A DNA stretch of 64,000 nucleotides, from positions 16,685-80,684 of the forward strand of contig JANQFK010000062.1 of the NCBI GenBank assembly GCA_028277885.1, given 5' to 3'. This DNA comes from Myxococcota bacterium (lineage in GTDB: Bacteria; Myxococcota_A; UBA9160; UBA6930). Below are positions 3,170-61,475 of this stretch, piece after piece. The notes under the pieces are model-generated. The model did not search any database. It had not been told where the DNA came from and worked only from the letters and a program-made list of their open reading frames with translations. The stretch's first letter is position 1; each line of letters starts with the position of its first letter. Position numbers and translations under genes: made by a program.

Positions 3170-3570
3170 CGGGCTCCGCCGCGGATCGCGTCGCCCGCTC
3201 CGCCGCAGGTCCCGCCGGCGAGGGCGTTGTCGGCGAAGCGGTGCGCCTCCACCGGGCGTCCGCCGATCAGGTGCTGCTGGATGATCTCCTCCAGCACGTC
3301 CGGCGTGCAGCCCCGGTACCAGGTGCCCTCGGGATACACCACGGCGATGGGTCCCTCGCAGCAGATGCGCAGGCAGCTGGCCTGGCTGCGGTAGACGCCT
3401 CCCTCGGCGTCGGACAGGCCCAGCTCGCGCAGCCGCTGCTTCAGGAACTTCCAGGACTCCTTGGCGGCCTCGCCCGGTGCGCAGTCGCCGTGGGTGCACA
3501 GGAAGATGTGGCGCCGGGCGCTGTCCAGGCGCAGCACCTTCACGATGCGCTCGAGGTCGGCGGCGGACAT
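3166..3570 (-). CDS. Thioredoxin-like [2Fe-2S] ferredoxin
   Basis: [40 protein letters not shown]. Confidence 0.85.
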
Positions 3571-3613
3571 GGGAGACGCGTAGTATAACGACTCGTTCCG
3601 GAGGAGTGACGCG

Positions 3614-4933
<1,320 letters not shown>

Positions 4934-4942
4934 AATGCCGCC

Positions 4943-5617
4943 ATGACGGCCCCCCACGACGCGCCCGGCCCCGCACCCGGCGAGGCGCCCGAGCCCGCCC
5001 GCCTGGTTCGCGCCCTGGGCCACGAGGTCGGCAACCTGCTGGCCGCGATCCGGCTCACGGCCCACCTGCTCGGCACCGAGGCGGCGCGCGTCGGCGTCGC
5101 GGAGGCGGTGCGCGGCGAGGCCGCCGACATCGAGATGAGCGCGGCGCGGGCCGGTGCGCTGCTCGCCCACCTGCGCCCGCTCCTCGCCCGCGGCCGGGAC
5201 GCCGACCGCTCCCGGCTCCCGGCCCGGGAGCTGCTCTCCGGCGTCGCCGCCGCCCTCGAGGAGCACGGCGCGCGGGTCGAGCTCCACGCCGCCGACGACC
5301 TCCCGGAGCTGCGCGTCGACGCCGACGCGCTGCACCACGTGCTGGTGATGCTGGTGCTGGGGGCCCTCGAGCGCACGCGGCCCGCCGGCGTGGTGCGGAT
5401 CGCCGCGAGCCGCCGCGGCGGGGAGCTGGTGCTCTGCCTGCGGGACGAGTCCGAGGCGGACGCTGCGGCGGCCCCGGAGGCGCCGACCGGGCGCGCCCTC
5501 GACCTGGGCATCGCCGAGGTCGTGCTGGGCCGCGACGAGGGCCGCCTCCAGGCGGGCGCGGACGGGCCGGGCAGCCGGGTCGAGATCGTGCTGCCCGGCG
5601 CAGGCTCCGGGAGCTAG
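4943..5617 (+). CDS. Sensor-less histidine kinase-like protein with a degenerate HATPase domain
   Basis: H-box HEVGNLL is present; N, G1 and G2 boxes are degenerate (VMLVLGA, DESEA, GRALDLG). Confidence 0.6.
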   Translation: MTAPHDAPGPAPGEAPEPARLVRALGHEVGNLLAAIRLTAHLLGTEAARVGVAEAVRGEAADIEMSAARAGALLAHLRPLLARGRDADRSRLPARELLSGVAAALEEHGARVELHAADDLPELRVDADALHHVLVMLVLGALERTRPAGVVRIAASRRGGELVLCLRDESEADAAAAPEAPTGRALDLGIAEVVLGRDEGRLQAGADGPGSRVEIVLPGAGSGS

Positions 5618-5645
5618 CGCCCGGCAAGGGCCCGGGAGCCGGCGC

Positions 5646-6545
5646 TCAGGCCGCCTTGCGCAGGCCCGTGGGGCGCCTCGTGCCGCCCTCCACCACCGAG
5701 GCCGGCGGCTCGCGCAGGTCCCACACCAGGCCCACGGCCGCGAGCGCGCGCAGGATGTAGTAGGTGACGTCGATCTCCCACCAGCGGAAGCCGTTGCGCG
5801 CCGAGGCCATGTAGTAGTGGTGGTTGTTGTGCCAGCCCTCGCCGAAGGTGAGCAGCGCGAGGAGCAGGTTGTTGCGGCTGTCGTCGCCGGTCTCGTAGCG
5901 GCGCGTGCCCCAGACGTGGGCCAGGGAGTTGATGCAGTAGGTGGCGTGCCACAGCAGCACGGTGGAGACCGAGTAGCCCCAGACCATGCCCGTGAAGCCG
6001 CCGATCAGCCAGCACACGAAGGCGAGGGAGAGCGGCGGCAGGAAGTGCCACTCGTTCAGCCAGCGCAGCTCCGGGTACTTCGCGAAGTCCTTGATCAGGT
6101 CGTTCGGGGTGCCGCCCCAGCGCGGATCGAACACCCAGCCCTGGTGGGCGTACCAGAACCCGTCCCGGGGCGAGTGCACGTCGCCGGGGCCGTCGGAGTA
6201 GCGGTGGTGGCGGCGGTGGGTGCCGGCCCACCACAGCGGCCCCTTCTGGGTCGCCATGGCGCCGATCCACGCCAGCACGAACTGGAACACGCGGCTGGTG
6301 CGGTAGCCGCGGTGGGCGAAGTAGCGGTGGTAGACGCCGGTGATGCCGAACACGCGCAGCGCGTAGGTGGCGGCGCACAGCCCCACCGCCCAGGCCGGCG
6401 CTCCCACCCACAGCACGAACAGCACGCTGGCGTGGATGCCCCAGTAGATGCTGCGCGAGAGCAGCGCGGTGCGGGTGAGCCAGCCGTCGCTGGTGGTGAA
6501 GTCGTGGCCCTCGTTCCCGTGAGACGCGTCGACGTGGCTGGCCAT
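5646..6545 (-). CDS. Acyl-CoA (delta-9-like) fatty acid desaturase
   Basis: His boxes HRYFAH, HRRHH, HNNHH; GEGWHNNHH and WWEID motifs. Confidence 0.92.
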   Translation of the reverse strand: MASHVDASHGNEGHDFTTSDGWLTRTALLSRSIYWGIHASVLFVLWVGAPAWAVGLCAATYALRVFGITGVYHRYFAHRGYRTSRVFQFVLAWIGAMATQKGPLWWAGTHRRHHRYSDGPGDVHSPRDGFWYAHQGWVFDPRWGGTPNDLIKDFAKYPELRWLNEWHFLPPLSLAFVCWLIGGFTGMVWGYSVSTVLLWHATYCINSLAHVWGTRRYETGDDSRNNLLLALLTFGEGWHNNHHYYMASARNGFRWWEIDVTYYILRALAAVGLVWDLREPPASVVEGGTRRPTGLRKAA

Positions 6546-6672
6546 GATGAGAGCGTTCCTCCGCTACGGGCGAGGGCAGGCTAGCCGCCGCATCGGCGGA
6601 CGCGGTCTTCGGACTGTGAAACTTGTGTCAATCGCCCCCCGCGCGGGCCGTGAACCCATCCAGGACGGGCAC

Positions 6673-6701
6673 TTGCGCCGCCAGGGGGCGCCGGGGACAC
6701 T
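6673..6701 (+). promoter_or_regulatory. Putative sigma70-type promoter for the PhyH gene
   Basis: TTGCGC-17 nt-GACACT, followed by SD GGAGGA at 6717-6722. Confidence 0.3.
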
Positions 6702-6729
6702 CCCGCCTCCACCGCTGGAGGACGGTCCC

Positions 6730-7572
6730 GTAGCCCTCGAAGCCCCGCCCCCCGCCGCCCCCGCGCGAGCCCCCGCCGCCGGCCTCAACCCCGCCGAGCG
6801 GGAGGCCTGGGAGCGCGACGGCTTCTTCCTGCGCGAGGCGGTCTTCGGTCCCCAGGAGGTGGGCGCCCTGGCGGCGGCCGCGGAGCGGGTGGTGGCCCGG
6901 GCCGCTGAAGGGGCGCCGCACGGCGAGGCCTACGCGATCGACGGCAACCGCTACGTCGAGGCGGCGGGGTCGACGGTGCAGTACGAGCACCGGCCCGGCA
7001 CCCGGACGCTGCGGGTGGTGGAGCCCTTCCACCACCTGGACCCGCTCTTCTCGGAGCTCGTCGACGACCCGCGCATCGTCGAGCCCATGTGCGACCTGGT
7101 CGGCAGCGAGCGGGTGGCGCTCTTCACCGACAAGCTCAACCTGAAGCGCCCCCGGGAGGGCTCGCGCTTCCGCTGGCACCAGGACTCCCCGTACTGGAAC
7201 CACGTCTGCGGCCACGTGGACCGGCTCCCCAACGTGATGCTGGCCCTCGACGACGCGAGCCGGGCGAACGGCTGCCTGCGCGTGATCCGCGGCAGCCACG
7301 TGGACGGGCTGCTGCCGGGCTGCGAAGGGGAGGGGACCCTGGGGCCGCTCTTCACCCACCCGGACCACGTCCGCGAGGAGGACCAGGTGCCCGCGGAGAT
7401 GCCCGCCGGGAGCCTGCTCTTCTTCAGCCCCCACACGATCCACGGCTCGGAGCCCAACGAGACCGGTCTACCGCGCCGCGCCCTGGTGCTCACCTACCAG
7501 CCCGCCGGGCACCCGATGTTCAAGGTGCCCCGGGTGCGCGACGCCGGGCCCCGCGCCGACCGCGCCCGCTAG
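6730..7572 (+). CDS. Phytanoyl-CoA dioxygenase (PhyH)-family Fe(II)/2OG oxygenase; start uncertain
   Basis: [25 protein letters not shown]; the SD points to an in-frame GTA at 6730, with alternative GTGs at 6616 and 6625. Confidence 0.8.
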
Positions 7573-8180
7573 CCCCAGTCGGCCTCGGAGGCCTCGCGGA
7601 AGGCGGCGAGCAGCTCCGGATGGCTGCGCGTGACGGGGAACTGGGGGAACTCCGCCACCACGTTGTCCGGCGGGCAGAACAGGATGCCCGCGTCGGCCTC
7701 GGAGAGCATGCTGGTGTCGTTGTAGGAGTCGCCCGCCGCGACCACGCGGAAGTTGAGCTCGTGGAACGCCTTCACGGCGCGGCGCTTGGGGTCGGCCTGG
7801 CGCAGCCGGTAGTCGGTGATGCGCCCGCCCTCCACCTCCAGCCGGTGGCAGAGCAGGGTGGGATGGCCGAGCTGGCGCATCAGCGGCATGCCGAACTCGT
7901 AGAAGGTGTCCGAGAGGATCACCACCTGCATGTGCTCCCGGAGCCCGTCCAGGAACTCGCGGGCGCCGGGGAGCGGCCCCATCTCGGCGATGACCTTCTG
8001 GATCTCCGGCAGGCCCAGGCCTTCGCGCTCGAGGATGTCCAGCCGATACCGCATGAGCACGTCGTAGTCGGGCTCGTCCCGGGTGGTCCGGCGCAGGGCT
8101 TCGATCCCGGTACGCTCGGCCACGTTGATCCAGATTTCGGGGACCAGCACCCCTTCGAGATCGAGGCAGGCGATTTCCAT
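7569..8180 (-). CDS. thrH: Bifunctional phosphoserine phosphatase/homoserine phosphotransferase
   Basis: [46 protein letters not shown]. Confidence 0.93.
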
Positions 8181-8253
8181 GGCTCCGGAGCATAACCCCC
8201 CGCACCCGCAGCGAAATGGCGTCGGGTCCGGGGGGTTCGATAGTCTCCCTCCG

Positions 8254-9477
8254 ATGGCCCCCTGTCTCGTAGAGGCCCTCCGGGCCGGGGGCCGCGGATC
8301 CCCGCCCCTCCGGCCCCGGCCGGGGCGCCCGGGGCGGTCCCTCCGCCGGCTCGCCCTCGGCCTCGGGCTGGCCCTGGCCCTGCCGGCCCTCGGCTGCGGC
8401 GGCGCCGAGGAGGCCGGGAACGGCCCGAGCGAGGCCACCACGGTGGACATCGTGGGCGTGGCGCCGGAGCTGCTGCGCAACGTCGTGAAGATCCCGGGCC
8501 AGCTCACCGCCGAGATGACGGTGGAGATCGTGCCCGAGATCGAGGGGGTGGTGGAGACCATCGAGTTCCGCGAGGGCCAGCCCGTCGAGAAGGGCCAGGT
8601 GCTGCTGCGGCTGCGCGACCAGGAGCAGCGAGCCCGGCTGCGCGAGGCCGAGGCCGAGCGGCGGCTGGCGGCGGCGGTCTACCGCCGCACCAAGAGCCTG
8701 GCCCGGCGCGACGTCTCCTCCGAGGCCCAGCTCGAGCGCGCCGCGGCGGAGCTCGAGGTGGCGCGCTCCCGGGTCGAGGCCGCCCAGGTGGAGCTCGACC
8801 GCACCCTGATCCGCGCCCCCTTCGACGGGGTGATGGGCGACCTGGTGGTCGCCTTCGGCGACCGGGTCACGCCGGACGACGAGCTGGTGCGCATCGACGC
8901 CATCGACCGGCTCCAGCTCGTCTTCACCCTGCCCGAGGGCGCCGTGGGCCAGGTGCAGCCCGGGATCCCGGTCTCGATCAAGGTGGCCCCCTACCCGGAG
9001 CGCCGCTTCGAGGGGGAGGTCTACTTCGTCTCCCCGACCCTCGACGAGGCGGCGCGGCGCCTGCTCATCAAGGCCTGGATGCCCAACGCCGACCACGCCC
9101 TGCGCCCCGGCCTGTTCGCCCAGATCGAGGCCGAGATCGAGCGCCGCGAGGACGCCCTGCTGGTGCCCGAGTCGGCGCTCCTCTACGCCATGGACGGGAC
9201 CTTCGTGTGGCGCGTGGACGCCGACGACCGCGCCCACCGCGTCCCGGTCACGGTGGGGCTGCGCGACGGCTCCCGGGTGGAGATCGTGGAGGGCCTGGCC
9301 GCCGGCGACCGGGTGGTGGCGACCGGGGTGCACAAGGTCGACCCCGGAGGCCGGGTGCGGGTGCCGGACGCGCCCGGGGCCGGCCAGCCGCTGAAGGCCG
9401 CCGAGGAGGGCGAGGAGGGCGAGGAGGCCGCCCTCGAGTCGCGCGCCGACCCCGGGGAGCGGGGCCTCGAGTCGTGA
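8254..9477 (+). CDS. RND efflux periplasmic adaptor (MFP) subunit, probable lipoprotein
   Basis: ALGC lipobox-like motif, [35 protein letters not shown]. Confidence 0.88.
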
Positions 9478-12400
9478 GGCTCTCCGAGGTCTGCATCGAG
9501 CGGCCCGTGCTCGCCACGGTGATGTCCCTGGTGATCGTGCTGTTCGGCACCCTGGCGCTGACGCGCCTCGCCAACCGCGACCTGCCCGACGTGGACCCGC
9601 CGGTGGTCTCGGTCACCACCATCTTCCCCGGCGCGGCGCCGGAGGTGGTGGAGACCTCGGTCACCCAGCCCCTGGAGGACCAGCTGATCGGCATCGAGGC
9701 GGTGAAGCACGTCACCTCCGAGAGCCGCGAGCAGGTCTCGCTGATCAGCGTCGAGTTCGAGCTCGACCGCGACCTCGAGGCCGCGGCGAACGACGTGCGC
9801 GACCGCGTGGCTCGCTCGCGCAGCGAGCTGCCCGACGAGGTCGAGGAGCCCATCGTCGCCAAGCGCGACTCCGACGCCAGCCCGATCATGTGGCTGGGCT
9901 TCTCGGGCCGGAACTACAGCCAGATCGAGCTCTCCCAGATCGTCGAGACCCAGGTCCAGGACCGCCTGGCGAAGCTGACCGGCGTCTCCGACGTGCTGGT
10001 GAGCGGCGAGCGCCGCTACTCGATGCGGGTCTGGATCGACAACGACCGGCTCACCGCCCGCGACCTCAGCATCGCGGACGTCACCGACGCGCTGCGGCGG
10101 GAGAACGTCGACATCCCCTCGGGCCGGCTGGAGAGCACGGACCGCGAGTACACGGTGCGCAGCCTGGGCGAGCTGCGCACCGTCGAGGGCTACGAGAGCC
10201 TGATCGTGGCCACGGTGAACGGCGAGGCCGTGCGCCTGCGCGACGTGGCCCGGGTGGAGGTGGGCCCCGAGGACGAGCGCAAGATCGTGCGCTTCAACCA
10301 GCAGCCCGCCATCGGGCTCGGCGTGGTGAAGCAGTCGAAGGCCAACACCCTCGACGTGGCCGACCGCATCAAGCAGGAGCTGCGCAGCATCGAGGGGGAC
10401 CTCCCGCCCGGGGTCCGCATCGAGATCGCCTTCAACTCCGCGGAGTTCATCCGCGACTCGATCCGCGACGTCTCGCGCACCATCTTCGAGGCCATCATCC
10501 TCGTGGTGCTGGTGATCTACCTGTTCCTGCGCAGCGCCCGGGCCACGGTGATCCCCGCCGTGGCGATCCCGGTCTCCATCGTCGGCGCCTTCGCGATCCT
10601 CTACTTCCTCGGCTTCACCATCAACACGCTCACGCTGATGGGGGTGACGCTCGCCATCGGGCTGGTGGTGGACGACGCCATCGTGGTGCTCGAGAACGTG
10701 ACGCGCTGGATCGAGAAGGGCACCGCGCCCATGGAGGCGGCCCGCCAGGGCATGCGCGAGATCTCCTTCGCCGTGGTGGCGGCGACCATCTCGGCGGTGG
10801 CGGTCTTCGCGCCGCTCACCTTCCTGCGCGACACCACCGGCCGGCTGTTCCGGGAGTTCGCGGTCACGGTGGCGGCGGCGCTGCTGATCTCGGGCTTCGT
10901 GGCGCTCACGCTCTCGCCGGCCCTGGCCGGCCGGGTGATGCGCCGCGCGCGGGCCGAGACCGGCGTGAAGGCCCGGCTCTCGGCGGCCCTCGAGTCGATC
11001 TCCCGGGGCTACGCGCGCTGGCTGGCCCCGGCCCTGCGGCACCCCGGCCGGGTCGCGGGCCTGGCCGCCCTGTGGGTCGGCCTCGGCGTCGGGCTCTACG
11101 TCTTCGCGATCGACGAGGAGCTGATGCCCTCCGCGGACCGCGGCTTCGTGATGGCCCGGGTGACCGCGCCCGAGGGCAGCACCATCGAGTACACGGACCG
11201 CTACCAGCGCCAGGCCGAGACCGTGGTGGCGGCCCAGCCCGAGGTGCGGCGCATCTTCTCGGTGGTTCCCGTCGGGATCGGCGCGCCGGGCGTGGTGAAC
11301 GAGGGCTTCATGTTCATCAGCCTGAAGCCCCGGGCCGAGCGCGAGGGCTCGGACCGCGACGTGATGAAGGCCATGCGCGAGGGCTTCGAGGAGATCCCCG
11401 GCGTCGAAGCCCACGCCATCCCGCCCTCGCCGATCCGGGGCTTCGGCAGCGACGTGGAGCTGGTGCTCCAGGGCCCCGAGGTGCGCGAGCTGGCCCGCTA
11501 CGGCGAGGAGATCGAGCGGCGCCTCGCCGCGGTGCCGGGTCTGGTGAACGCGCGCAGCAACCTGTTCCTCAACAAGCCCCAGCTCGAGGTGGAGATCGAC
11601 CGCGACCGCGCCAGCGACCTCGGCGTCTCGGTGCGCGACATCGCGACCACGCTCCAGATCCTGCTGGGCGGCATGGACCTCTCGACCTTCAAGCTCCAGG
11701 GCGAGACCTACGACGTGGTGGCCCAGCTGCCCCGGCGGGACCGCTCCCGGGCCTCGGACCTGCTGGGCCTCTACGTGCGCGGCCGCGGCGACCGCCTGGT
11801 GCCGCTGGCCTCGGTGGTGGACGCCCGGGAGACCGTGGCGCCCCGGGCGCTGCCCCACTTCGACCGGCGTCGCGCGGTCACGATCTCGGCCAACAGCCCG
11901 GGCCTCGCCCAGGGCGAGGCCCTGAGCAAGGCGCGCGCCATCGCCGAGGAGGTGGTGGCCGGTGCCCCGGGCTACCGGGTCACGTTCTCGGGCGAGGCCG
12001 AGCGCTTCTTCGAGGCCAGCAACGCGCTGGCCTTCGCCTACGCGCTCGCCATCCTGGTGGTCTACCTGGTGCTCGCCGCCCAGTTCGAGAGCTTCGTGCA
12101 CCCCTTCACCATCCTGGTGGCCGTGGCGCTCTCCTTCACCGGCGCGCTGCTCGCCCTGGTGGTGGTGGGAGAGCTCCAGCAGCTCGGCGGGGGCTCGCCC
12201 CAGACCCTGAACCTCTACAGCAAGATCGGCCTGGTGATGCTGATCGGGCTGGTCACCAAGAACTCGATCCTGATCGTCGAGTTCGCGAACCAGCTCCGGG
12301 AGCGCGGCGTCGAGCTCGGCGAGGCCATCCGCGAGTCGGCCCGCACCCGGCTGCGCCCGATCCTGATGACGGCGCTGGCCACCATGGTGGGCATCCTCCC

Positions 12401-47542: not shown

Positions 47543-48031
47543 TCATCCCTCGACGGAGACCCGCTGCAGCCGGGTCTTGCGGGGCTTTCGCCGCTCCACC
47601 GGTCGCTCGCCGGGGGTCGCGGTCGGGGCCGGTTGACGCGGTGCGCGCACGCCGAGCTCCCAGAGGATCTCGCGCAGGCCGAGGAAGGCGCGCAGCACGG
47701 CGCGGGCCTCCGGGTCCTCCTGGGCGCGCCGCTCCCAGCGCGCGATCTCGCCCTCGAGGGCGTCGAGCACGCCGGCCACCAGCTCCGCCCCCGAGGCGCC
47801 GGCGTCCTCGGCGAGCAGCCGCGCCACGGCCTCGAGGCCGCCGGCCAGGGGCGGCAGCGTCTCGGAGCCCGGCGTGCCCGTGGCGGCCAGGCTCGCGGCG
47901 TCGAGCAGCGCGCCGAGGGCGGCCGTGGCCTCGGCGCCCGCGGCGCGGGCGTGGCGGCGGGCCCGGGCCAGGGCCTCGGCGGGCGTCTCCGCCGCGCCTC
48001 CCGCGCGATCCCGGCGGTCACTCGGATCCAT
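47543..48031 (-). CDS. Hypothetical helical protein
   Basis: GC3-biased frame coupled to the upstream ArsA stop; ends RLQRVSVEG. Confidence 0.6.
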   Translation of the reverse strand: MDPSDRRDRAGGAAETPAEALARARRHARAAGAEATAALGALLDAASLAATGTPGSETLPPLAGGLEAVARLLAEDAGASGAELVAGVLDALEGEIARWERRAQEDPEARAVLRAFLGLREILWELGVRAPRQPAPTATPGERPVERRKPRKTRLQRVSVEG

Positions 48032-49227
48032 CAGGGGGTCTCCCGCTCGGCCTCGCCGAGCACCAGGGAAGCGACGTGGGCGAGCCCGTCCAGATCGTGC
48101 ACGTCGCGATCGAGCAGCGGAACGCAGCGCCAGAAGTAGCCCGAAGCCCGCGCGCGTTCACGCAGCGGAGCCACGTTCTCGGCGTCGCGCTCGACGAGGG
48201 CCGCGTAGCCGCGCAGCGCCGCGCGCGTGGCCTCGGCGGCGGCGCGCGCATCGAAGCCCGCGCCCTCGCTGAGCGCGAAGGCCTCGGCGAGCTTCTCGAG
48301 CGCCGCCGCGTCGGCTCCGTCGCCGGGCTCCAGCCCGGCGTCGGGCCACAGGTGCATGCGGTTCACCACGATGCCCGCCACCCCGGCGCGGCCCGACTCG
48401 AGCCGCTCGAGGAAGCTCTCGGCGTGGCGCACCGACTCGCGCGCGGGCCCGGCGGCCAGCAGGAAGGCGGTCTCGGGCCCGAAGAGCAGCGCCTGCACCC
48501 TGTGGGCGCGGTCGCGGAAGCCCTCGGACATGCCCTCGAAGGCGAGCAGGAACTCCGAGATGTCCTGGAGGAAGCCCACGCCCGACACCTTCTCGAGGGT
48601 GCGCAGGACGCGCTGGGCGCCACGCTGGAACAGCCGGAACCCCATGCGGCCGGCCGCGAAGGCGGGGTGCAGCAGCAGCTGCACGACGCGGCTGTCGAGG
48701 AAGCCGAGCAGCCGCTCCGGGGCCTCGAGGAAGTCGAGGGCGTGCTGCGAGGGCGGCGTGTCGAGCACGATCAGGTCGAAGTCCTTCTGCTCGGCCAGCT
48801 CGTAGACCTTCTCCATGGCGGAGTACTCGGCGCTCCCCGCCAGCGCGTCGGAGACGTGCTGGTAGATCGGGTTGCCCAGGATGCGGTCCCGGGCCTCGGG
48901 GCTCTCGGCGAAGCGCTCGACCAGGTCGTCGAAGGTGCGCTTCATGTCGAGCATCATGGCCGAGAGCTCGCCTTCGGGCGGCACGCCGAGGCGGTCGAGC
49001 ACGTCGCGGGGCAGGGTCTGGGGCTCGTTGCCGAGCTCGCGGATCCCGAGGGCGTCGGCGAGCCGCTTGGCGGGGTCGATGGTGAGCACGAGCACGCGGC
49101 GGCCGCGCCGCGCCGCCGACAGGCCCAGTGCGGCGGAGATCGTGGTCTTGCCGACGCCGCCGGTGCCCACGCACACCAGCACGCGGCGCGAGTCGAGGAG
49201 CACGTGGGGCGCGGGAGCCGGCGTCAC
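48031..49227 (-). CDS. ArsA/GET3-family ATPase (Rv3680-like subunit)
   Basis: CVGTGGVGKTT, TIDPAKRLADALG, EYSAMEK, DTPPSQHALDFL. Confidence 0.88.
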   Translation of the reverse strand: MTPAPAPHVLLDSRRVLVCVGTGGVGKTTISAALGLSAARRGRRVLVLTIDPAKRLADALGIRELGNEPQTLPRDVLDRLGVPPEGELSAMMLDMKRTFDDLVERFAESPEARDRILGNPIYQHVSDALAGSAEYSAMEKVYELAEQKDFDLIVLDTPPSQHALDFLEAPERLLGFLDSRVVQLLLHPAFAAGRMGFRLFQRGAQRVLRTLEKVSGVGFLQDISEFLLAFEGMSEGFRDRAHRVQALLFGPETAFLLAAGPARESVRHAESFLERLESGRAGVAGIVVNRMHLWPDAGLEPGDGADAAALEKLAEAFALSEGAGFDARAAAEATRAALRGYAALVERDAENVAPLRERARASGYFWRCVPLLDRDVHDLDGLAHVASLVLGEAERETP

Positions 49228-50210
49228 GCCGCCTCCGCCGCGGCGGGCTCGAGGAGCGCCGTGCCGAGCCGGTCGAGGTCCTCGGGTCCGCGGACGCCCT
49301 GGGGGAGCAGGGGGAGCGTGCAGATCGGCAGCCCGGTCCAGGCCTCGATCGCGCCGACGTAGTGGGCGTTGAGCCGATGGCGGGAGCGCAGGTGGGCGGC
49401 GCAGCGGGCGAGGGTGCGGGGCCCCGGCAGCCCCGGGACGTGCAGCTCCGCCGGCAGGCGGGCCAGTCGCTCGTCGAGATCCTCGAGCCCGGGCGGGAAG
49501 GGCGGAGGCGTCACGGCGTTCACCACCACCCGGTCCACCGCGACCCCCACCTCCTCGCGCAGGCGCTGCACCAGCTCGGCGGTCTCCCGCGCCGGCAGCT
49601 CCTCGGCGAGGGCCACGGGCAGCAGCAGGGTCGAGTCGGGATCGGTGATCATCTGCTGGACCAGGGAGGCGTTGCGCCGCAGCGGGCCCGCCCGCACCGC
49701 CGACGAGACCACCCGCGGCACGTCGAGGAAGGTGAGGCCGTGGCCCGTGGCGGGCGCGTCCACGAGGAGCAGGTCGAACTCCGGCGCTCCGCCGGGCCGG
49801 CGGCCCTGGGCCATGTGCCACACCTTTCCCAGGGTGATGAGCTCGCGCCAGCCCGGCGCCGCCTCCATGAGCTGGCGGAAGCCCGGGTTCCGCAGCACCC
49901 GGCTCACCAGGCCGCGGACCGGGAGCTGGAGGCTCAGGTACTCGGCGAGGGCCTCGAAGGGATCGATGCGCATGGCGGTCAGCCCGGGCTGGAGCTCCCG
50001 GCCCGCGTAGCCCACGGGAGGCGTCGCCGGGTCCAGGAGGCGCGGGACGTGCTCCTCGCGGCCCGTCTCGGCCACCAGCACCCGCCTGCCCGCCTGGGCG
50101 GCCGCGCGCGCCAGGGCCGCCACCACGCTCGTCTTCCCGGTGCCGCCCTTGCCCGTCACGATCACCAGGCGGCGCTCGAGGAGGCCGCGGCGGGGCAGGG
50201 GCAGGGGCAA
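49224..50210 (-). CDS. ArsA/GET3-family ATPase (Rv3679-like subunit)
   Basis: TTG start after GGAG; VTGKGGTGKT, APGWRELITLGK, DAPATGH, EELPARET. Confidence 0.85.
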   Translation of the reverse strand: MPLPLPRRGLLERRLVIVTGKGGTGKTSVVAALARAAAQAGRRVLVAETGREEHVPRLLDPATPPVGYAGRELQPGLTAMRIDPFEALAEYLSLQLPVRGLVSRVLRNPGFRQLMEAAPGWRELITLGKVWHMAQGRRPGGAPEFDLLLVDAPATGHGLTFLDVPRVVSSAVRAGPLRRNASLVQQMITDPDSTLLLPVALAEELPARETAELVQRLREEVGVAVDRVVVNAVTPPPFPPGLEDLDERLARLPAELHVPGLPGPRTLARCAAHLRSRHRLNAHYVGAIEAWTGLPICTLPLLPQGVRGPEDLDRLGTALLEPAAAEAA

Positions 50211-50345
50211 GCGGGTCTCCGTCCCCGCGGGCGCCGCCCCTCTCAAGCGGGGTCGCCACGCGTCCGAAACGACCGTAGACGGCCGGGTTCCCTCGGAAAC
50301 TAGCGTAGGAACGAGGTCCCAGGGCAAGCCACGGAGAGCTCTCGG

Positions 50346-56266: not shown

Positions 56267-56842
56267 CTAACGCGCGAGCAGGGCCTTCCGCGCCCGGTAC
56301 AGGTGGGACTTCACCGAGTCCTCGCTCTTGTCGAGAGCCTCGGCGATCTCCTGGATCGAGCGGTCCTGGAGGTGGTGCAGCTGGAAGAGCAGGCGCTGCT
56401 CCGGCGTCAGGTCCTGCCGGATGGCCGTCTCCATGCGCTGCATGGTCTCGTTGCACTCGTAGGCCTCGTGCGGATTCGGGTCGCGGCTCACGGCGCCGGG
56501 AAGGTTGGCGTTGTCCGGCTCGGTCTCGGGCAACGGAACCATGTCGTGTCGCTTCTTCTTGTAGCGGCCGGCGATGGTCCGGCGGGTCAACCCGAACAGC
56601 CAGGCGGCGAAGGGCGCCTCGCCCCGGAAGCCGTGGATCGACGAGAAGACGTTGACGAAGACCTCTTGCACGGTCTCCTCGGCGTCCGCCCGGCTCGCCA
56701 TCCGCTTGGAGACGAAGCTGTAGACCCGAGGGAAGTAGCGCTCGTACAAGATCTCGAAGGAGGCGCGGTCTCCCGTGCGCAAGCGGTCGATCAGCTCGGC
56801 GTCGGAGAGCGGCTCCGGAAGCGCAGCATTCGCAGCAGCCAT
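56267..56842 (-). CDS. ECF-type RNA polymerase sigma factor
   Basis: GDRASFEILYERY, DAEETVQEVF, FAAWLFG, IQEIAEAL..SVKSHLYRAR. Confidence 0.9.
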   Translation of the reverse strand: MAAANAALPEPLSDAELIDRLRTGDRASFEILYERYFPRVYSFVSKRMASRADAEETVQEVFVNVFSSIHGFRGEAPFAAWLFGLTRRTIAGRYKKKRHDMVPLPETEPDNANLPGAVSRDPNPHEAYECNETMQRMETAIRQDLTPEQRLLFQLHHLQDRSIQEIAEALDKSEDSVKSHLYRARKALLAR

Positions 56843-56998
56843 GGTTCCCTTCCCTGGCGCACCGGCACGCCGGCGCACGTCCCATCCCCCATTGTGGTAG
56901 TGACGAGGTCGGGCGACGGGGTGTCAAAAAATGTCACCGATCGACGAAAAAAGTTGCCGGCTGCCGAAAAGAGGCACCCCGCGGGGCCTCCCGCCCGC

Positions 56999-57559
56999 TC
57001 AGAACGCTCCTGAGGGCGCCTCGGAGCCCGCCTCGCCGAGGTCGTCCTCCTCGAGCCCCGTCCGGAAGACCGACTCCAGGGCCGGGGCCCAGGCGTCGGG
57101 GCCGGGCTCGGCGGGCCCCACGGGCTCGAGCTCCACGGCCCAGCCCGTCGCGGTGCGGCGGGCGCGGTAGACGGCCGGCTCGATCGGCGCTCCCCCCAGG
57201 CCCTGGGCGGCGGCCAGCACCCGCGGATCGAGCCGCGGGGCCAGCAGCAGGGCGCGCACCCCGCGGCCGGGATCCAGGCCGAGCCCGGGAGCGAGCTGCC
57301 GCCAGTCGGCGAGGCGGGGCTCGAGCCAGGCGCGCTGGGCGAGGGCGTCGGTGAAGCGGGCGAGGTCGTCGCCCTCGGCGGCCACGCAAACCACGACGAC
57401 GCCGCCCCGCTCGTCCCGGGCGACGAGGTCGATGCGGGCGTCGAGGCCCAGCACCCGCTCGGCCACCACGCTGAGCGGCGGGTCGAGCTCCACGAGCGCC
57501 TCGCCGATGGCGCGCAGCAGGGCGGAGCGGGGCGGTCGGGGTGCGCGGCTCTCAGCCAC
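56999..57559 (-). CDS. Hypothetical protein with a degenerate NucS/PD-(D/E)XK-like fold
   Basis: RIDLVARDERGGVVVVCV and VRALLLAP resemble the NucS C-terminus, but the E-x-K catalytic motif is absent. Confidence 0.5.
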   Translation of the reverse strand: MAESRAPRPPRSALLRAIGEALVELDPPLSVVAERVLGLDARIDLVARDERGGVVVVCVAAEGDDLARFTDALAQRAWLEPRLADWRQLAPGLGLDPGRGVRALLLAPRLDPRVLAAAQGLGGAPIEPAVYRARRTATGWAVELEPVGPAEPGPDAWAPALESVFRTGLEEDDLGEAGSEAPSGAF

Positions 57560-58325
57560 GGGCGTCCTCCGCGGCGTCCTCCAGCAGGAGCCTCGCCACG
57601 TCGCGCACCGCCCGGGCGCCGCGGGACTGGGGATGGGCCAGCCCGATGGGACGCAGGTTCACGATGGCGCGGTAGACGTCGAGGTCGTCGAGGAGCAGGC
57701 CGTAGCTGAGCAGGCCGCGCCCGAGGTTCTGCTCCGCGGCGGCGGCGAGGCGCCCGAAGGCCTGGCGCGCGTCGTCGATGCTGGCGACGCCGTGGATCGT
57801 GACCCCGACGCGGGCCTCGGGGGCGCCGCGCACCAGGCTCTCCACCAGGCGGTAGGTCGCCTGGAGCTCGCGGGGGTCGGGCGTGGTGAAGAGCAGGGAC
57901 CAGCGCGGCAGCTCCCGGGCGGGCGGGGCGAGCCAGTCGACGGGAACGCAGAGCAGCGCCAGCCCCGGCTTCCCGCGTCCCCAGCCCCGCGACTCGCCGA
58001 GCTCCCGGGCGGTGGCGGCGAGCTCCTCGAGGCCGCGCGCCCCGCACAGCACGAGCTCGGTCCCGAGCGGCCCCACCCCCGGCGCGGGCCACAGGGATTC
58101 GGCGTCCACCCCGCGCGGCGCGATCACCGTGGCCGACGCCCCGGTGCGCGCCACCTCCACGGCCAGGTTCCAGACGAAGGCCGCGCGCACCACGTCGCGC
58201 GGGTCGAGGGGGACGGCGAGCCAGGGCGGATCGGCGCGGGGCGTGAGGGGCTCCCGGGGCGCGGGCTCTTCGCCGTCGGCGCCGTCGAGGAAGTAGTGCA
58301 GGACGTCGCCGAGCTCGCGCGCCAA
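57552..58325 (-). CDS. Degenerate MinD/FlhG-like protein with no Walker A
   Basis: RAAFVWNLAVEVAR, FTTPDPRELQATYRLV, DLDVYRAIVNLRPIGLAHPQSRGARAVRDVARLL. Confidence 0.6.
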   Translation of the reverse strand: MARELGDVLHYFLDGADGEEPAPREPLTPRADPPWLAVPLDPRDVVRAAFVWNLAVEVARTGASATVIAPRGVDAESLWPAPGVGPLGTELVLCGARGLEELAATARELGESRGWGRGKPGLALLCVPVDWLAPPARELPRWSLLFTTPDPRELQATYRLVESLVRGAPEARVGVTIHGVASIDDARQAFGRLAAAAEQNLGRGLLSYGLLLDDLDVYRAIVNLRPIGLAHPQSRGARAVRDVARLLLEDAAEDARG

Positions 58326-58380
58326 ACGGGGGGCTCCTTCCAGCCGATTCTCGGAGCGGCGGGTCGCGGGACCCGCGCGC

Positions 58381-59484
58381 TCAGCTCACCACGAGGACCG
58401 AGTTCTTTCCGCCCACGGGTCCCGCCACGGAGCGCGGGTTGTCCGGGTCCGAGCGCCACTCCCCGTCCACCACGTAGCGGTACTGGTAGGTGCCCGGGGC
58501 GAGGTGCAGCACCTTGCGCCACACGCGGGCCGGCCCGTCGGAGTCGACCCGGGACTGCACCCCCTTGTCGGGCACCCAGCCGTTGAAGTCCCCGGCGATG
58601 CGCACGTCCGCGGCCCGCGGGTCGCGGAACTCGACCACCACCTCCCGGGTGTGGATCGGACCGGCTTCGGGAGCCATCGCGGCGGGCCGCAGCGGTGCGT
58701 CGATCGCGTCGGCGTCGGCGCCGAGGGCGGTCACCTCGACGGCGAGGGCGGCGTAGTCCACGGCTCCGTTGGCGGAGCGGGCGAAGCGGATGATGGGGAG
58801 ACCGCGGCGCGCGGCCTCGCGCAGCTTCACGTTGGCGCGGATCACGGTGTCGAAGCACAGGTCGCCGAAGAGCTTGCGGATCTCCGCCAGGGTCTCCCGG
58901 GCGTAGCGGGTGCGCCCGTCGTACAGGGTCGGCAGGATCCGCACGGTGAGCTCGTGCCCGATGCGGTTGGCGAGCAGCGCGATGGTCTCGAGCAGCTTCT
59001 GCACGCCGTCGATGGCGAAGAAGCTCGTCTCGAGGGGGACGATCACCTCGCGGGCCGCGCGCAGGGCGTTGAAGGTCAGGATCCCGACGTTCGGCGGGCA
59101 GTCGATCAGCGCGTAGTCGTAGCGGTCGGCCACGGTCTCGAGGGCGCCGGCGAGGCGCTCGGTGCGGGTGTCGGCCCGCTCGCCGGCGAGCCTCTGCTCG
59201 AGGGCGGAGAGCACGATGCCCGACGGCGCCACGTGGAGGCCCTCGCGCACCTCCTGGATCACCGGGCCCAGGCGCGCGTCGCCGCCGGGCTCCGCGAGCA
59301 CCTCGTAGAGGTTCTCGTCGAGGGCCTCGGGCTCGAGGCCCAGGGCCAGCGTGGCGTGGGCCTGGGGATCGATGTCCACCACCAGCACCCGGGCTCCTTC
59401 GGCCTCGAGGCAGCCCGCGAGGTTCACGGTGGTGGTGGTCTTCCCGCAGCCACCCTTCTGGTTGACGATCGCGATGGTTCGCAT
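58381..59484 (-). CDS. ParA/Soj-family ATPase fused to a C-terminal AMPK-beta/CBM48-type glycogen-binding domain
   Basis: NQKGGCGKTTT, DIDPQAHAT, IDCPP, YDGRT, IRANVKLREA; C-terminal V.IAGDFNGW..W...L.LAPGTYQYRYVVDGEW.SDPDNP..GGKNS. Confidence 0.9.
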   Translation of the reverse strand: MRTIAIVNQKGGCGKTTTTVNLAGCLEAEGARVLVVDIDPQAHATLALGLEPEALDENLYEVLAEPGGDARLGPVIQEVREGLHVAPSGIVLSALEQRLAGERADTRTERLAGALETVADRYDYALIDCPPNVGILTFNALRAAREVIVPLETSFFAIDGVQKLLETIALLANRIGHELTVRILPTLYDGRTRYARETLAEIRKLFGDLCFDTVIRANVKLREAARRGLPIIRFARSANGAVDYAALAVEVTALGADADAIDAPLRPAAMAPEAGPIHTREVVVEFRDPRAADVRIAGDFNGWVPDKGVQSRVDSDGPARVWRKVLHLAPGTYQYRYVVDGEWRSDPDNPRSVAGPVGGKNSVLVVS

Positions 59485-59616
59485 GGCGTCCGATCCCTCC
59501 CGCTCCCGCGCCGTCCGGTTCGGGAGCGTTCCGTCGGCGGCTCCTGCCGCCGGGGGGTCGGGGGAACGCCAGCGCAGCGATCCGGGCTCCACCCGTGCCC
59601 GGACCTGCCCTCCCAG

Positions 59617-60096
59617 CTAGCCGGCCCGGGCGCGGGCCGGCGAGGAGGGCGCGGCGCGCGGTGCGTTGCGGTCCGCGCCCTCGCTCCGACGGAAGGCCGC
59701 GACCTCCCGCTCGAAGCGCGCCACCTCGAAGACCCACTCCTGACCGGTCACGGCCTCGAAGGCGCCTTCCCCGTGCATCACCAGCACCACGTCGCCGGTC
59801 GCGACCAGCACGAGCTCGGCGAGCGGGTGATCCACCTGGGGAAGCGTCCGCCGGAGCGCCTGGATGCTCCGCCGGATCCGCTGCACCGAGACGCCGGCCT
59901 CGAGCAGCCGCTTGGCGGCCTTCAGGGCCACCAGATCGCGAAAGGTGTAGCGGTGGTGGCCACCCGGGGTCTGGCAGGAAGGCCGCACCAGGTCGGTGCG
60001 CGCCCAGTACTGGAGCTGGCGCCGCGAGATGCCCAGCATCTGGGCGACCTCGCCGCTGCGGTAGCGATCCCCGTCGTGGCCCGTGGCCGTGGTCAA
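59617..60096 (-). CDS. MerR-family HTH protein
   Basis: YRSGEVAQMLGISRRQLQYW..LVRPS..GGHHRYTFRDLV, GVSVQRIRR; TTG start. Confidence 0.85.
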   Translation of the reverse strand: MTTATGHDGDRYRSGEVAQMLGISRRQLQYWARTDLVRPSCQTPGGHHRYTFRDLVALKAAKRLLEAGVSVQRIRRSIQALRRTLPQVDHPLAELVLVATGDVVLVMHGEGAFEAVTGQEWVFEVARFEREVAAFRRSEGADRNAPRAAPSSPARARAG

Positions 60097-60127
60097 GTCG
60101 ACGACCCCCCCTGTGCCGTCGCGCTGG

Positions 60128-60182
60128 AAGCTAGAACCGTGTTCTCCATCGAGTCAACCCAAATCGATGCGAATTTGTCGCA
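60128..60182 (-). promoter_or_regulatory. Putative promoter and operators for the merR-parA unit
   Basis: Minus strand TTGACT-18 nt-TAGCTT; palindrome AGAAC-CGT-GTTCT (60133-60145) lies in the spacer, and TGCGA-ATTTG-TCGCA (60168-60182) lies upstream. Confidence 0.4.
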
Positions 60183-60269: not shown

Positions 60270-61475
60270 GTGACCAGGGGGGAGCCGCGTCCCAAGCAGC
60301 CCTCGCGGCCCGAGGGGGCCGATGGGCGGCTGTGGGTCGAGGACGAGGCCGGCCGCCGCCCCTTCATGCGCGGCATCCTGATCCACTCCCTGATGGCCCG
60401 GGGCTTCGACTTCCAGGAGGCCTACCAGGTCGCGGTGGCGGTGCGGAAGCGCCTGCGGGGAGAGGCGGTGGTGGGCCGCAAGGAGATCGTCGCCGCCATC
60501 GAGGCCGTCGCCGACCCCGACGCGCTGCGCGAGGCCCGGGTCGAGGCGCGCCAGCCGCCCCAGATCCAGGTCAAGGGCTCGTCCGGCGAGCTGCCCTTCT
60601 CGAAGGGCTTCCTCAGCCAGTCGCTGCTGGCCGCCGCCATCGAGCCGAGCGACGCCTTCGACGTGGCGCGCGAGATCGAGGGGGAGCTGCTGCGCCGCGA
60701 GCAGCGCGCCATCGATCGCCACGAGCTGCGCGGCGTCGCCTACCAGACCCTGCACCAGCGCCTGGGTCCCAAGGTGGCCGAGCGCTACCTGGCCTGGCGC
60801 CGCTACCAGGAGCCCGAGCGCCCCGTGATCCTGCTGCTCGGCGGCGCCACGGGGGTGGGCAAGACCGCCCTCGCCCTCGAGGTGGGGCACCGCCTCGGCG
60901 TGGCCCGGGTGATCTCCACCGACGCGATCCGCCAGGTGATGCGCATCATGCTCTCGCCGGACCTGGTGCCCGCCATCCACGCCTCGTCCTTCGACGCCCA
61001 CCGCGCCGTGGGCGACCCGGCCAGCGCGCCCGGCGCGGACCCCGTGATCGGTGGCTTCAGCTCCCAGGCCGACATCGTCTCCGTCGGCGTCCGCGCCATG
61101 ATCGACCGCGCCGTGGCGGAGAACCAGAACCTGATCCTGGACGGCGTCTCGGTGGTGCCCGGCTCCATCGACCTCGAGGCCTACCGCGACAAGGCGGACC
61201 TGATCTTCCTGCTGGTCGCGGTCCTCGACCTCTCGAAGATCGCCGACCGCTTCGCGACCCGGGGGCGCGCCGCCAAGGAGCGCCCGCCCCACCGCTACCT
61301 CGAGAACCTCGAGTCCATCGGCCGCATCCAGAACCACCTGCTCGAGCTCGCCGAGCAGCACGACGTGCCCATCGTGGAGAACGACGACTTCGACCTCTCG
61401 GTGCTCTCGATCATCCGGCACGTGACCGAGACCCTGCGCAAGAAGGACCCGATGGATGTGGCCGACCTGTTCTAG
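60270..61475 (+). CDS. 2-phosphoglycerate kinase-like protein (two ATP-cone-like domains + P-loop kinase)
   Basis: PFMRGILIHSL and PFSKGFLSQSL repeats; LLGGATGVGKT, ISTDAIRQVMR, IHASSF, DGVSVVPG, RIQNHL. Confidence 0.8.
   Translation: MTRGEPRPKQPSRPEGADGRLWVEDEAGRRPFMRGILIHSLMARGFDFQEAYQVAVAVRKRLRGEAVVGRKEIVAAIEAVADPDALREARVEARQPPQIQVKGSSGELPFSKGFLSQSLLAAAIEPSDAFDVAREIEGELLRREQRAIDRHELRGVAYQTLHQRLGPKVAERYLAWRRYQEPERPVILLLGGATGVGKTALALEVGHRLGVARVISTDAIRQVMRIMLSPDLVPAIHASSFDAHRAVGDPASAPGADPVIGGFSSQADIVSVGVRAMIDRAVAENQNLILDGVSVVPGSIDLEAYRDKADLIFLLVAVLDLSKIADRFATRGRAAKERPPHRYLENLESIGRIQNHLLELAEQHDVPIVENDDFDLSVLSIIRHVTETLRKKDPMDVADLF

Follow-up and report, generated by a model that had tools for sequence, protein, structure and literature searches.

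Orphan ParA-type ATPases that work with a dedicated adjacent partner on cargo other than DNA are represented by McdAB, PomXYZ and ParC/PpfA; in these systems it is the cargo that bears the activator, and the cargo genes are usually adjacent. Here we describe a locus that shares with them the orphan ParA and the adjacent partner, but in which the putative cargo-binding module is carried by the ATPase itself. It lies at positions 56,999–60,182 of a 64,000-nucleotide (nt) stretch of DNA, referred to below as the window, from a Myxococcota bacterium (assembly GCA_028277885.1, contig JANQFK010000062.1, positions 16,685–80,684; GTDB lineage Myxococcota_A, UBA9160, UBA6930). The locus holds a merR-like gene, a gene for a ParA ATPase fused to a carbohydrate-binding module (CBM), parA-CBM, and two further genes, g3 and g4. 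The reading that we prefer, at roughly even chances and on the strength of sequence comparison, is that parA-CBM, g3 and g4 form a housekeeping ParA positioning switch complete with an activator, and that this switch would tether sugar-bearing cargo to the nucleoid and release it through a peptide on the partner protein.

The locus also resembles chromosomal ParABS (Soj/Spo0J; Myxococcus xanthus, 8RAY) in its Soj-type ATPase with nucleoid-binding residues and a partner pocket, and in a downstream partner whose N-terminal aliphatic and basic helix stands in the same register as that described in PMC12462528. In that account, M. xanthus ParB binds ParA through L11, L15, L18 and I19, and R13 stimulates ParA. 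Here, in contrast, there is no ParB/Srx CTPase or helix-turn-helix (HTH) domain, the body of the partner being a dead FlhG and/or a dead NucS fold; a D-V-x-H-x-F-L turn is added to the peptide, and the ATPase carries the CBM. The genome holds a separate, canonical parAB. A third, orphan ParA with EKGG in its Walker A motif is encoded at G000:C68:24748-25554, and we take it to be PomZ-like.

The combination of genes has been recorded before. In a purely computational preprint, Li, Burroughs and Aravind (October 2026, bioRxiv 10.64898/2026.10.19.760177) list ParA–AMPK1_CBM with an inactive ParA and an inactive restriction endonuclease (REase) as clade ConB5, and propose carbohydrate-triggered immunity on the ground of fast CBM divergence. 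The trio agrees with the second ConB5 variant as set out there, that is, a ParA with C-terminal AMPK1_CBM, an adjacent fast-evolving inactive ParA-like gene and an adjacent inactive REase-fold gene, occurring sporadically across phyla; the assignment is made by architecture. It differs in that the CBM does not diverge rapidly within the order, a difference that bears on function and not on architecture. The earlier expectation, from the sequence alone, of an undescribed system therefore does not hold. The main text of the preprint contains none of the terms MerR, LGRGL, 'N-terminal peptide' or 'stimulat', although its supplements and Figure 5K may hold more. Our literature search returned no other work pairing ParA with AMPK1_CBM, and nothing relevant on the ParA/MinD family with glycogen granules, on LGRGL, on storage granules or on glycogen in UBA9160. 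The trio is a member of a computationally known system, and what is new here is its predicted activator peptide, its housekeeping pattern and the glycogen gap described below.

The ATPase and its CBM

ParA-CBM matches Pfam AAA_31 (E 5e-50) and AMPK1_CBM (E 7e-11), and its nearest relatives in the PDB are 8RAY (E 2e-43) and Helicobacter pylori Soj (HpSoj). The hallmarks of ParA/Soj proteins, a deviant Walker A motif with the signature Lys, DxD-x-Q and the Walker B Asp, are all present, with K10, K15, D37, D39, Q41 and D128 invariant in 79/79 aligned homologues. The DNA-binding basic residues are also kept, R191 and K/R220 each in 78 of the 79 rows, the latter aligning with M. xanthus R238. Judged by these residues, ParA-CBM is an intact Soj-type ATPase, and we infer that it binds DNA and the nucleoid. 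A tree of ParA-CBM and chromosomal ParA, made to test monophyly, did not resolve the base. Database homologues carry the label uncultured Myxococcota.

The tail of the protein aligns to the AMPK beta CBM at E 1e-5. As reported in PMC2642990, AMPK W100, K126 and W133 are required for glycogen binding; their counterparts W303, R336 and W343 are invariant in 40/40 rows from the order, and the equivalents of AMPK L146 and T148 are variable. The tail is predicted to bind sugar.

The partner pocket of M. xanthus ParA was mapped onto ParA-CBM by hand from the alignment to the PDB relatives, with residue roles taken from PMC12462528. The M. xanthus residues Y81/E82, L150 and L152 correspond to Y60/E61, V133 and I135, and L155, L187 and L192 to F138, L170 and I175; by this mapping the pocket is largely kept. 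The trio reading gains support because catalytic, DNA-binding and partner-pocket residues are retained together.

The N-terminal peptide of g3

Conservation in g3 is highest over the first 13 residues, which precede a disordered linker. R/K is found at position 3 in 108/113 sequences, L5 in 110, D7 in 107 and V8 in all 113, and M1, R3, L5, V8 and L9 stand in the register of M. xanthus ParB L11, R13, L15, L18 and I19. We consider it likely, from this register and conservation, that the N-terminal helix of g3 docks on ParA and activates the ATPase, switching it off.

A gene opening with the peptide follows parA-CBM in 29 of the 34 loci of the order by score; inspection by eye adds four in which the body is in decay. 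The sole locus of the order without it (G011) has a parA match that holds a stop. A further 60 more distant loci (L085-L144) were drawn from the best 80 of 596 genome matches to ParA-CBM. Among these, the peptide begins 21–166 nt past the parA stop in 25 by profile and in six more by eye, and the profile has no other above-threshold match within the 60 loci. Moreover, a profile made from 23 peptides of other phyla ranks g3 first among the 15,922 open reading frames (ORFs) of its own genome (17.2 bits; runner-up, 15.4). The literal string LGRGL opens seven of these 23 peptides and also that of the ParB encoded in this genome.

Across phyla the peptide is carried by at least four bodies: the FlhG-like domain; a NucS-like domain alone (Rokubacteria, Desulfobacterales and loci L043 and L055 of the same family as the present locus); an FlhG-like/NucS-like fusion in Phycisphaerae; and a small domain beside a CBM-less ParA in Desulfobacterales. 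The last arrangement is seen at L092:1161-2564 and L093:5001-6561, where a ParA without a Pfam CBM match is followed by a peptide-bearing protein of about 105 amino acids (aa). The pairing of ParA with the peptide may predate or outlast the CBM. Six Omnitrophota-type loci (L094, L112, L116, L118, L124 and L141) have the order GH57, single-transmembrane (single-TM) gene, parA-CBM, and match the first variant of the preprint as described there. The single-TM gene starts with a conserved amphipathic helix that is loosely peptide-like and fails the profile; it may be a membrane-anchored version of the same switch.

Several points weigh against a partner peptide acting on ParA-CBM and against the trio as a positioning unit. 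The profile used at the distant loci was seeded from its own matches, and 29 of these 60 loci have no downstream peptide gene, though most of the pocket residues are kept in their ParA. The profile of other-phylum peptides fails to recover the genome's own ParB, 3,351 to 12,074 of the 15,922 ORFs scoring just as high; because it misses this protein, the kinship of the peptide with ParB rests on the register and the seven LGRGL cases. Two acidic pocket residues are altered relative to M. xanthus ParA, D110 to V91 and E117 to K/R98, which could reflect a private specificity or a loss of stimulation. No cargo genes adjoin the trio, a further difference from McdAB, PomXYZ and ParC/PpfA. Lastly, adjacency inside the order says little because the entire region of about 12 kb around parA-CBM is syntenic there, and in-order synteny was dropped as proof of a unit.

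Two degenerate partner proteins

Neither g3 nor g4 has a match in Pfam or NCBIfam. A profile of g3 matches FlhG/FleN (E 7e-13), and its model, with a predicted local distance difference test (pLDDT) score of 88, matches FlhG 4RZ2 (E 1e-13, template modelling (TM) score 0.69). The protein does not have the make-up of an active FlhG/MinD: Walker A is replaced, no P-loop remaining anywhere in the class and that of other phyla being degenerate only in part, and no C-terminal membrane helix is seen. For g4, a sequence search against the PDB gave noise only; the model (pLDDT 88.5) matches NucS/EndoMS 2VLD (E 2.9e-5, TM score 0.48). Its motif Asp is kept in 22/25 homologues, and the catalytic E-x-K is absent, the common residues of the 25 rows at the corresponding columns including neither Glu nor Lys; the NucS N-terminal domain is also absent. 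FlhG/FleN and NucS/EndoMS can be seen as ancestors of g3 and g4, with which they have their folds in common, Walker A and E-x-K having been lost. That two of the four proteins would be pseudo-enzymes was foreseen by the sequence-only reading, and judged by motif it holds for both.

The ratio of non-synonymous to synonymous substitution (dN/dS) is 0.10–0.32 in four of five g3 pairs and 0.65 in the fifth, and 0.15–0.28 for g4. Dead as enzymes by their motifs, g3 and g4 are yet, bar one g3 pair, under purifying selection. Their mean identities are low (0.49 and 0.44, respectively). Both accompany parA-CBM across phyla, and g3-like and NucS-like bodies are fused in Phycisphaerae (hhalign E 6e-5 and 4e-5, at a modest probability of 66–71%). 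The proposal that the degenerate proteins are partners of ParA-CBM is borne out in part, by selection, cross-phylum company, the fusions and the ParB-register peptide on g3.

Two further features of g4 were observed. Behind a disordered linker, residues 165–175 (window ~57025-57066, minus strand) form an FR(T/S)GL..DL motif present in about 22 of 25 homologues, and this is possibly a second binding motif. Distant homologues (L095:6901-7734, L087:4250-5050, L101, L122 and L133) are extended at the C-terminus by a further domain of about 100 aa, for which the three scanned gave no Pfam match.

A conserved unit of three genes

On the minus strand, merR-like, parA-CBM, g3 and g4 form a co-oriented series of ORFs (Table 1), with gaps of 132 nt between merR and parA and 55 nt between parA and g3. 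The 8-nt overlap of g3 and g4 that had been noted from the sequence alone is confirmed. The parA-CBM ATG is preceded by a GA-rich stretch and marks the point at which conservation among homologues starts; a longer start, at 59592, was dropped for this reason.

Table 1. Features of the parA-CBM locus; positions are those of the window
Feature	Position	Strand	Basis and remarks
MerR-family HTH regulator, 159 aa	59617..60096	-	Pfam MerR_1 E 2.8e-17; accessory, outside conserved module
ParA/Soj-type ATPase (aa 1-255), variable linker and AMPK-beta-type CBM (aa 280-367), 367 aa	58381..59484	-	Pfam; system core
g3: N-terminal peptide, disordered linker and P-loop-less FlhG/FleN-like domain, 257 aa	57552..58325	-	Profile, structure model
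g3 N-terminal helix (aa 1-13), predicted ParA-docking/activating motif	58287..58325	-	Conservation, ParB register
g4: NucS/EndoMS C-domain (PD-(D/E)xK) fold without E-x-K, 186 aa	56999..57559	-	Structure model
g4 tail: linker, then short conserved C-terminal motif	within 56999..57559	-	Alignment
Conserved sigma-70-type promoter: -35 TTGACT (60157-60152), 18-nt spacer, -10 TAGCTT (60133-60128)	60128..60157	-	Comparison of relatives
ACA-containing element ~20 nt upstream of -35 box; candidate MerR operator	60172..60182	-	Comparison of relatives

Within the order, merR adjoins the other three genes in 17/34 loci, and at the 60 more distant loci it does so in none. In G025, parA, g3 and g4 have been relocated as a block, and merR and the sigma gene stay at the native locus; in G033, merR is kept, the locus has lost the trio, and a search of the genome did not find it elsewhere. 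The conserved unit consists of three genes, parA-CBM, g3 and g4, and not of four. The association of parA-CBM with genes of the g3 and g4 types extends beyond the order and across phyla, the conservation of neighbourhood that the sequence-only reading had asked for. Its further suggestion that the MerR-like protein is part of the machine is not supported, since merR adjoins the trio at only half of the order's loci and stays in place in the genomes where the trio has moved or disappeared.

A consensus promoter and terminator scan of the locus gave 0 sites; TTGAC(T/G/C) is found upstream in 18/18 loci with merR and 15/17 without it (33/35 together), and the full -35/-10 pair in 27/35 upstream regions. 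Because it is conserved across relatives, we take the promoter to be real, as had been thought plausible. The palindrome reported in its spacer is present (5-bp arms, 60145-60133); its sequence is not conserved, an equally good one arises in 5.5% of shuffled sequences, and it is probably a chance occurrence. It was ruled out as a MerR operator on these grounds.

The upstream ACA element is present in 17/18 loci with merR as against 3/15 without it, counts in which the kin are not independent, and the promoter spacer is 18 nt long in 14/14 scorable merR loci as against 3/13 merR-less loci. These associations suggest autoregulation by MerR, although most of the merR-less loci belong to one family. 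The MerR-like protein may resemble mycobacterial McdR/Rv1830. The McdR site holds ACA half-sites according to PMC9040748, and ACA occurs in the element here. MerR is likely to be at most a lineage-specific regulator of the promoter in those lineages that keep merR.

The genes that flank the trio, merR and an extracytoplasmic function (ECF) sigma gene, also bear on the idea of a stationary, AMPK-like carbon-status switch, in which maltodextrin on the CBM would tune the ATPase and g3 with g4 would relay the signal to transcription or to an enzyme, nothing being moved. There is precedent in AMPK, whose CBM is an allosteric sensor (PMC2642990), and the nearest structures to g3 are FlhG and FleN, FleN being bound to the regulator FleQ. 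The MerR and sigma genes, however, part from the trio in G025 and are not recurrent at the distant loci, ParA strictly conserves its DNA-binding surface, and one carrier (G002) is without every alpha-glucan marker tested. We regard such a switch as unlikely.

Other neighbours were seen in the window. The ECF sigma gene lies downstream (56267-56878, minus strand) and has a promoter-like element of its own, two TGACA words 10 nt apart at 56921-56937 (minus strand), which is apparently conserved in relatives. On the plus strand, 60270-61475 holds a divergent ATP-cone/2-phosphoglycerate-kinase-like gene (NCBIfam E 3e-92, below the cut-off) that adjoins the locus in 33/34 loci of the order as part of the general synteny. 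At about 48031-50300 (minus strand) are two tandem genes that we judge by their motifs to encode ArsA/Get3-like P-loop ATPases.

Candidate cargo of the CBM

For the positioning switch that we prefer, the nature of the CBM ligand is central. A dedicated glycogen-positioning system, in which the CBM grips granules and ParA spaces them along the nucleoid, would accord with the AMPK counterparts W303, R336 and W343, with the glgB gene that lies beside a glucan phosphorylase and a GT4 gene in the genome itself, and with the GH57 gene upstream in seven Omnitrophota-type loci. The gene content of the carriers argues otherwise. Among 41 genomes, glgB is found in 16 (15 of the 35 carriers of parA-CBM), GlgE in six and GT5 in nine, and 19 of the 35 carriers gave no match to any of them. 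The present genome, which is 90% complete, yielded no glgC, GlgE or GT5. Five carriers with a completeness of 94% or more, picked for missing glgB, were tested for further glycogen genes: GH57 BE_C, glgA, glgC, GlgE and phosphorylase were each found in 0/5, and the CBM is kept. Four of the five have one GH13 and three a GH57-like match, and G002 has neither; G028 is ambiguous, with a weak GT5 beside a GH57.

Because 19 of the carriers show no glgB, GlgE or GT5, glycogen granules are not the general cargo. They may be the cargo in some lineages, and they cannot explain retention of the CBM in all carriers; we consider a system dedicated to them quite improbable.

Inheritance and the question of immunity

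Among the relatives, parA-CBM is present in 35/41 genomes, and five of the six non-carriers are genomes of 2.1–2.8 Mb. ParA-CBM occurs in 25 of the 28 genomes of the class, as one copy in the same 12-kb neighbourhood. Elsewhere in the phylum it was found in 0/122 genomes at E<=1e-58. It is present in Planctomycetota, Rokubacteria and others, so that its occurrence is patchy between phyla only. For 24 taxa, the parA-CBM tree agrees with that of pgk2+pmm in 8/11 supported splits, and the pgk2 and pmm trees agree with each other in 6/11. Over 11 loci of the order, the CBM shows an identity of 0.69–0.71, as against 0.73–0.75 in the ATPase and 0.69 in pmm, and dN/dS of the CBM is 0.05–0.26 in five pairs.

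These data bear on an anti-phage sensor, in which the CBM would detect a carbohydrate linked to infection, ParA would multimerise to block it and DNA would be sensed by the dead REase fold; in an extension of our own, the CBM would instead detect sugar-modified phage DNA. Such a role is favoured by the patchiness across phyla, by the fast divergence of g3 and g4 and by the REase fold, which is typical of defence systems. It is favoured, too, by the placement of the architecture in the conflict clade ConB5 in the preprint. Within the class, however, the patchy, mobile, island-located inheritance of defence genes is not found: the gene is near-core, single-copy and vertically inherited in a fixed housekeeping neighbourhood. 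The locus holds no lethal effector, and PADLOC gave only short P-loop/HTH matches, none of them for g3 or g4. Presence in 25/28 genomes, a fixed locus and a CBM as conserved as the ATPase therefore argue against immunity, and we hold an anti-phage function to be decidedly unlikely. In its own class the trio behaves like a housekeeping gene set and not like an immunity gene set.

Proposed mechanism and significance

In the positioning switch as we envisage it, ATP-bound dimers of ParA-CBM would coat the nucleoid, and the CBM would grip an alpha-glucan or a glucosylated structure. The N-terminal helix of g3 would dock on the ParA dimer and trigger ATP hydrolysis, with g4, the dead nuclease fold, as its scaffold; the g3–g4 complex would present the peptide and strip ParA locally, giving a gradient or a timed release and, by inference, movement of the cargo. 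Compared with ParABS and McdAB the wiring would be turned round, with the ATPase binding the cargo and a separate, exchangeable scaffold bearing the activator. A broader version, which we advance tentatively and regard as somewhat doubtful, is an inverted ParA machine found across phyla, in which a lectin-tailed ATPase is served by a portable, ParB-derived helix that has been swapped among dead-enzyme and membrane scaffolds, the scaffold setting the site of release.

The published immune function fits the present lineage poorly, and the account in terms of glycogen granules is corrected by the finding that more than half of the carriers have no marker of glycogen synthesis among those sought. 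The proposed action of the peptide can be tested directly and at low cost, with a helix of 20 residues and the ATPase in soluble form. Should it prove true, ParA biology would gain a novel class of cargo and a further wiring, and two former enzymes would have found a second use in carrying a ParB-like switch. Were the inverted machine also to prove correct, no earlier ParA system would be known to act on carbohydrate cargo, and the sole paper that lists ParA-CBM would have been mistaken in assigning it to immunity.

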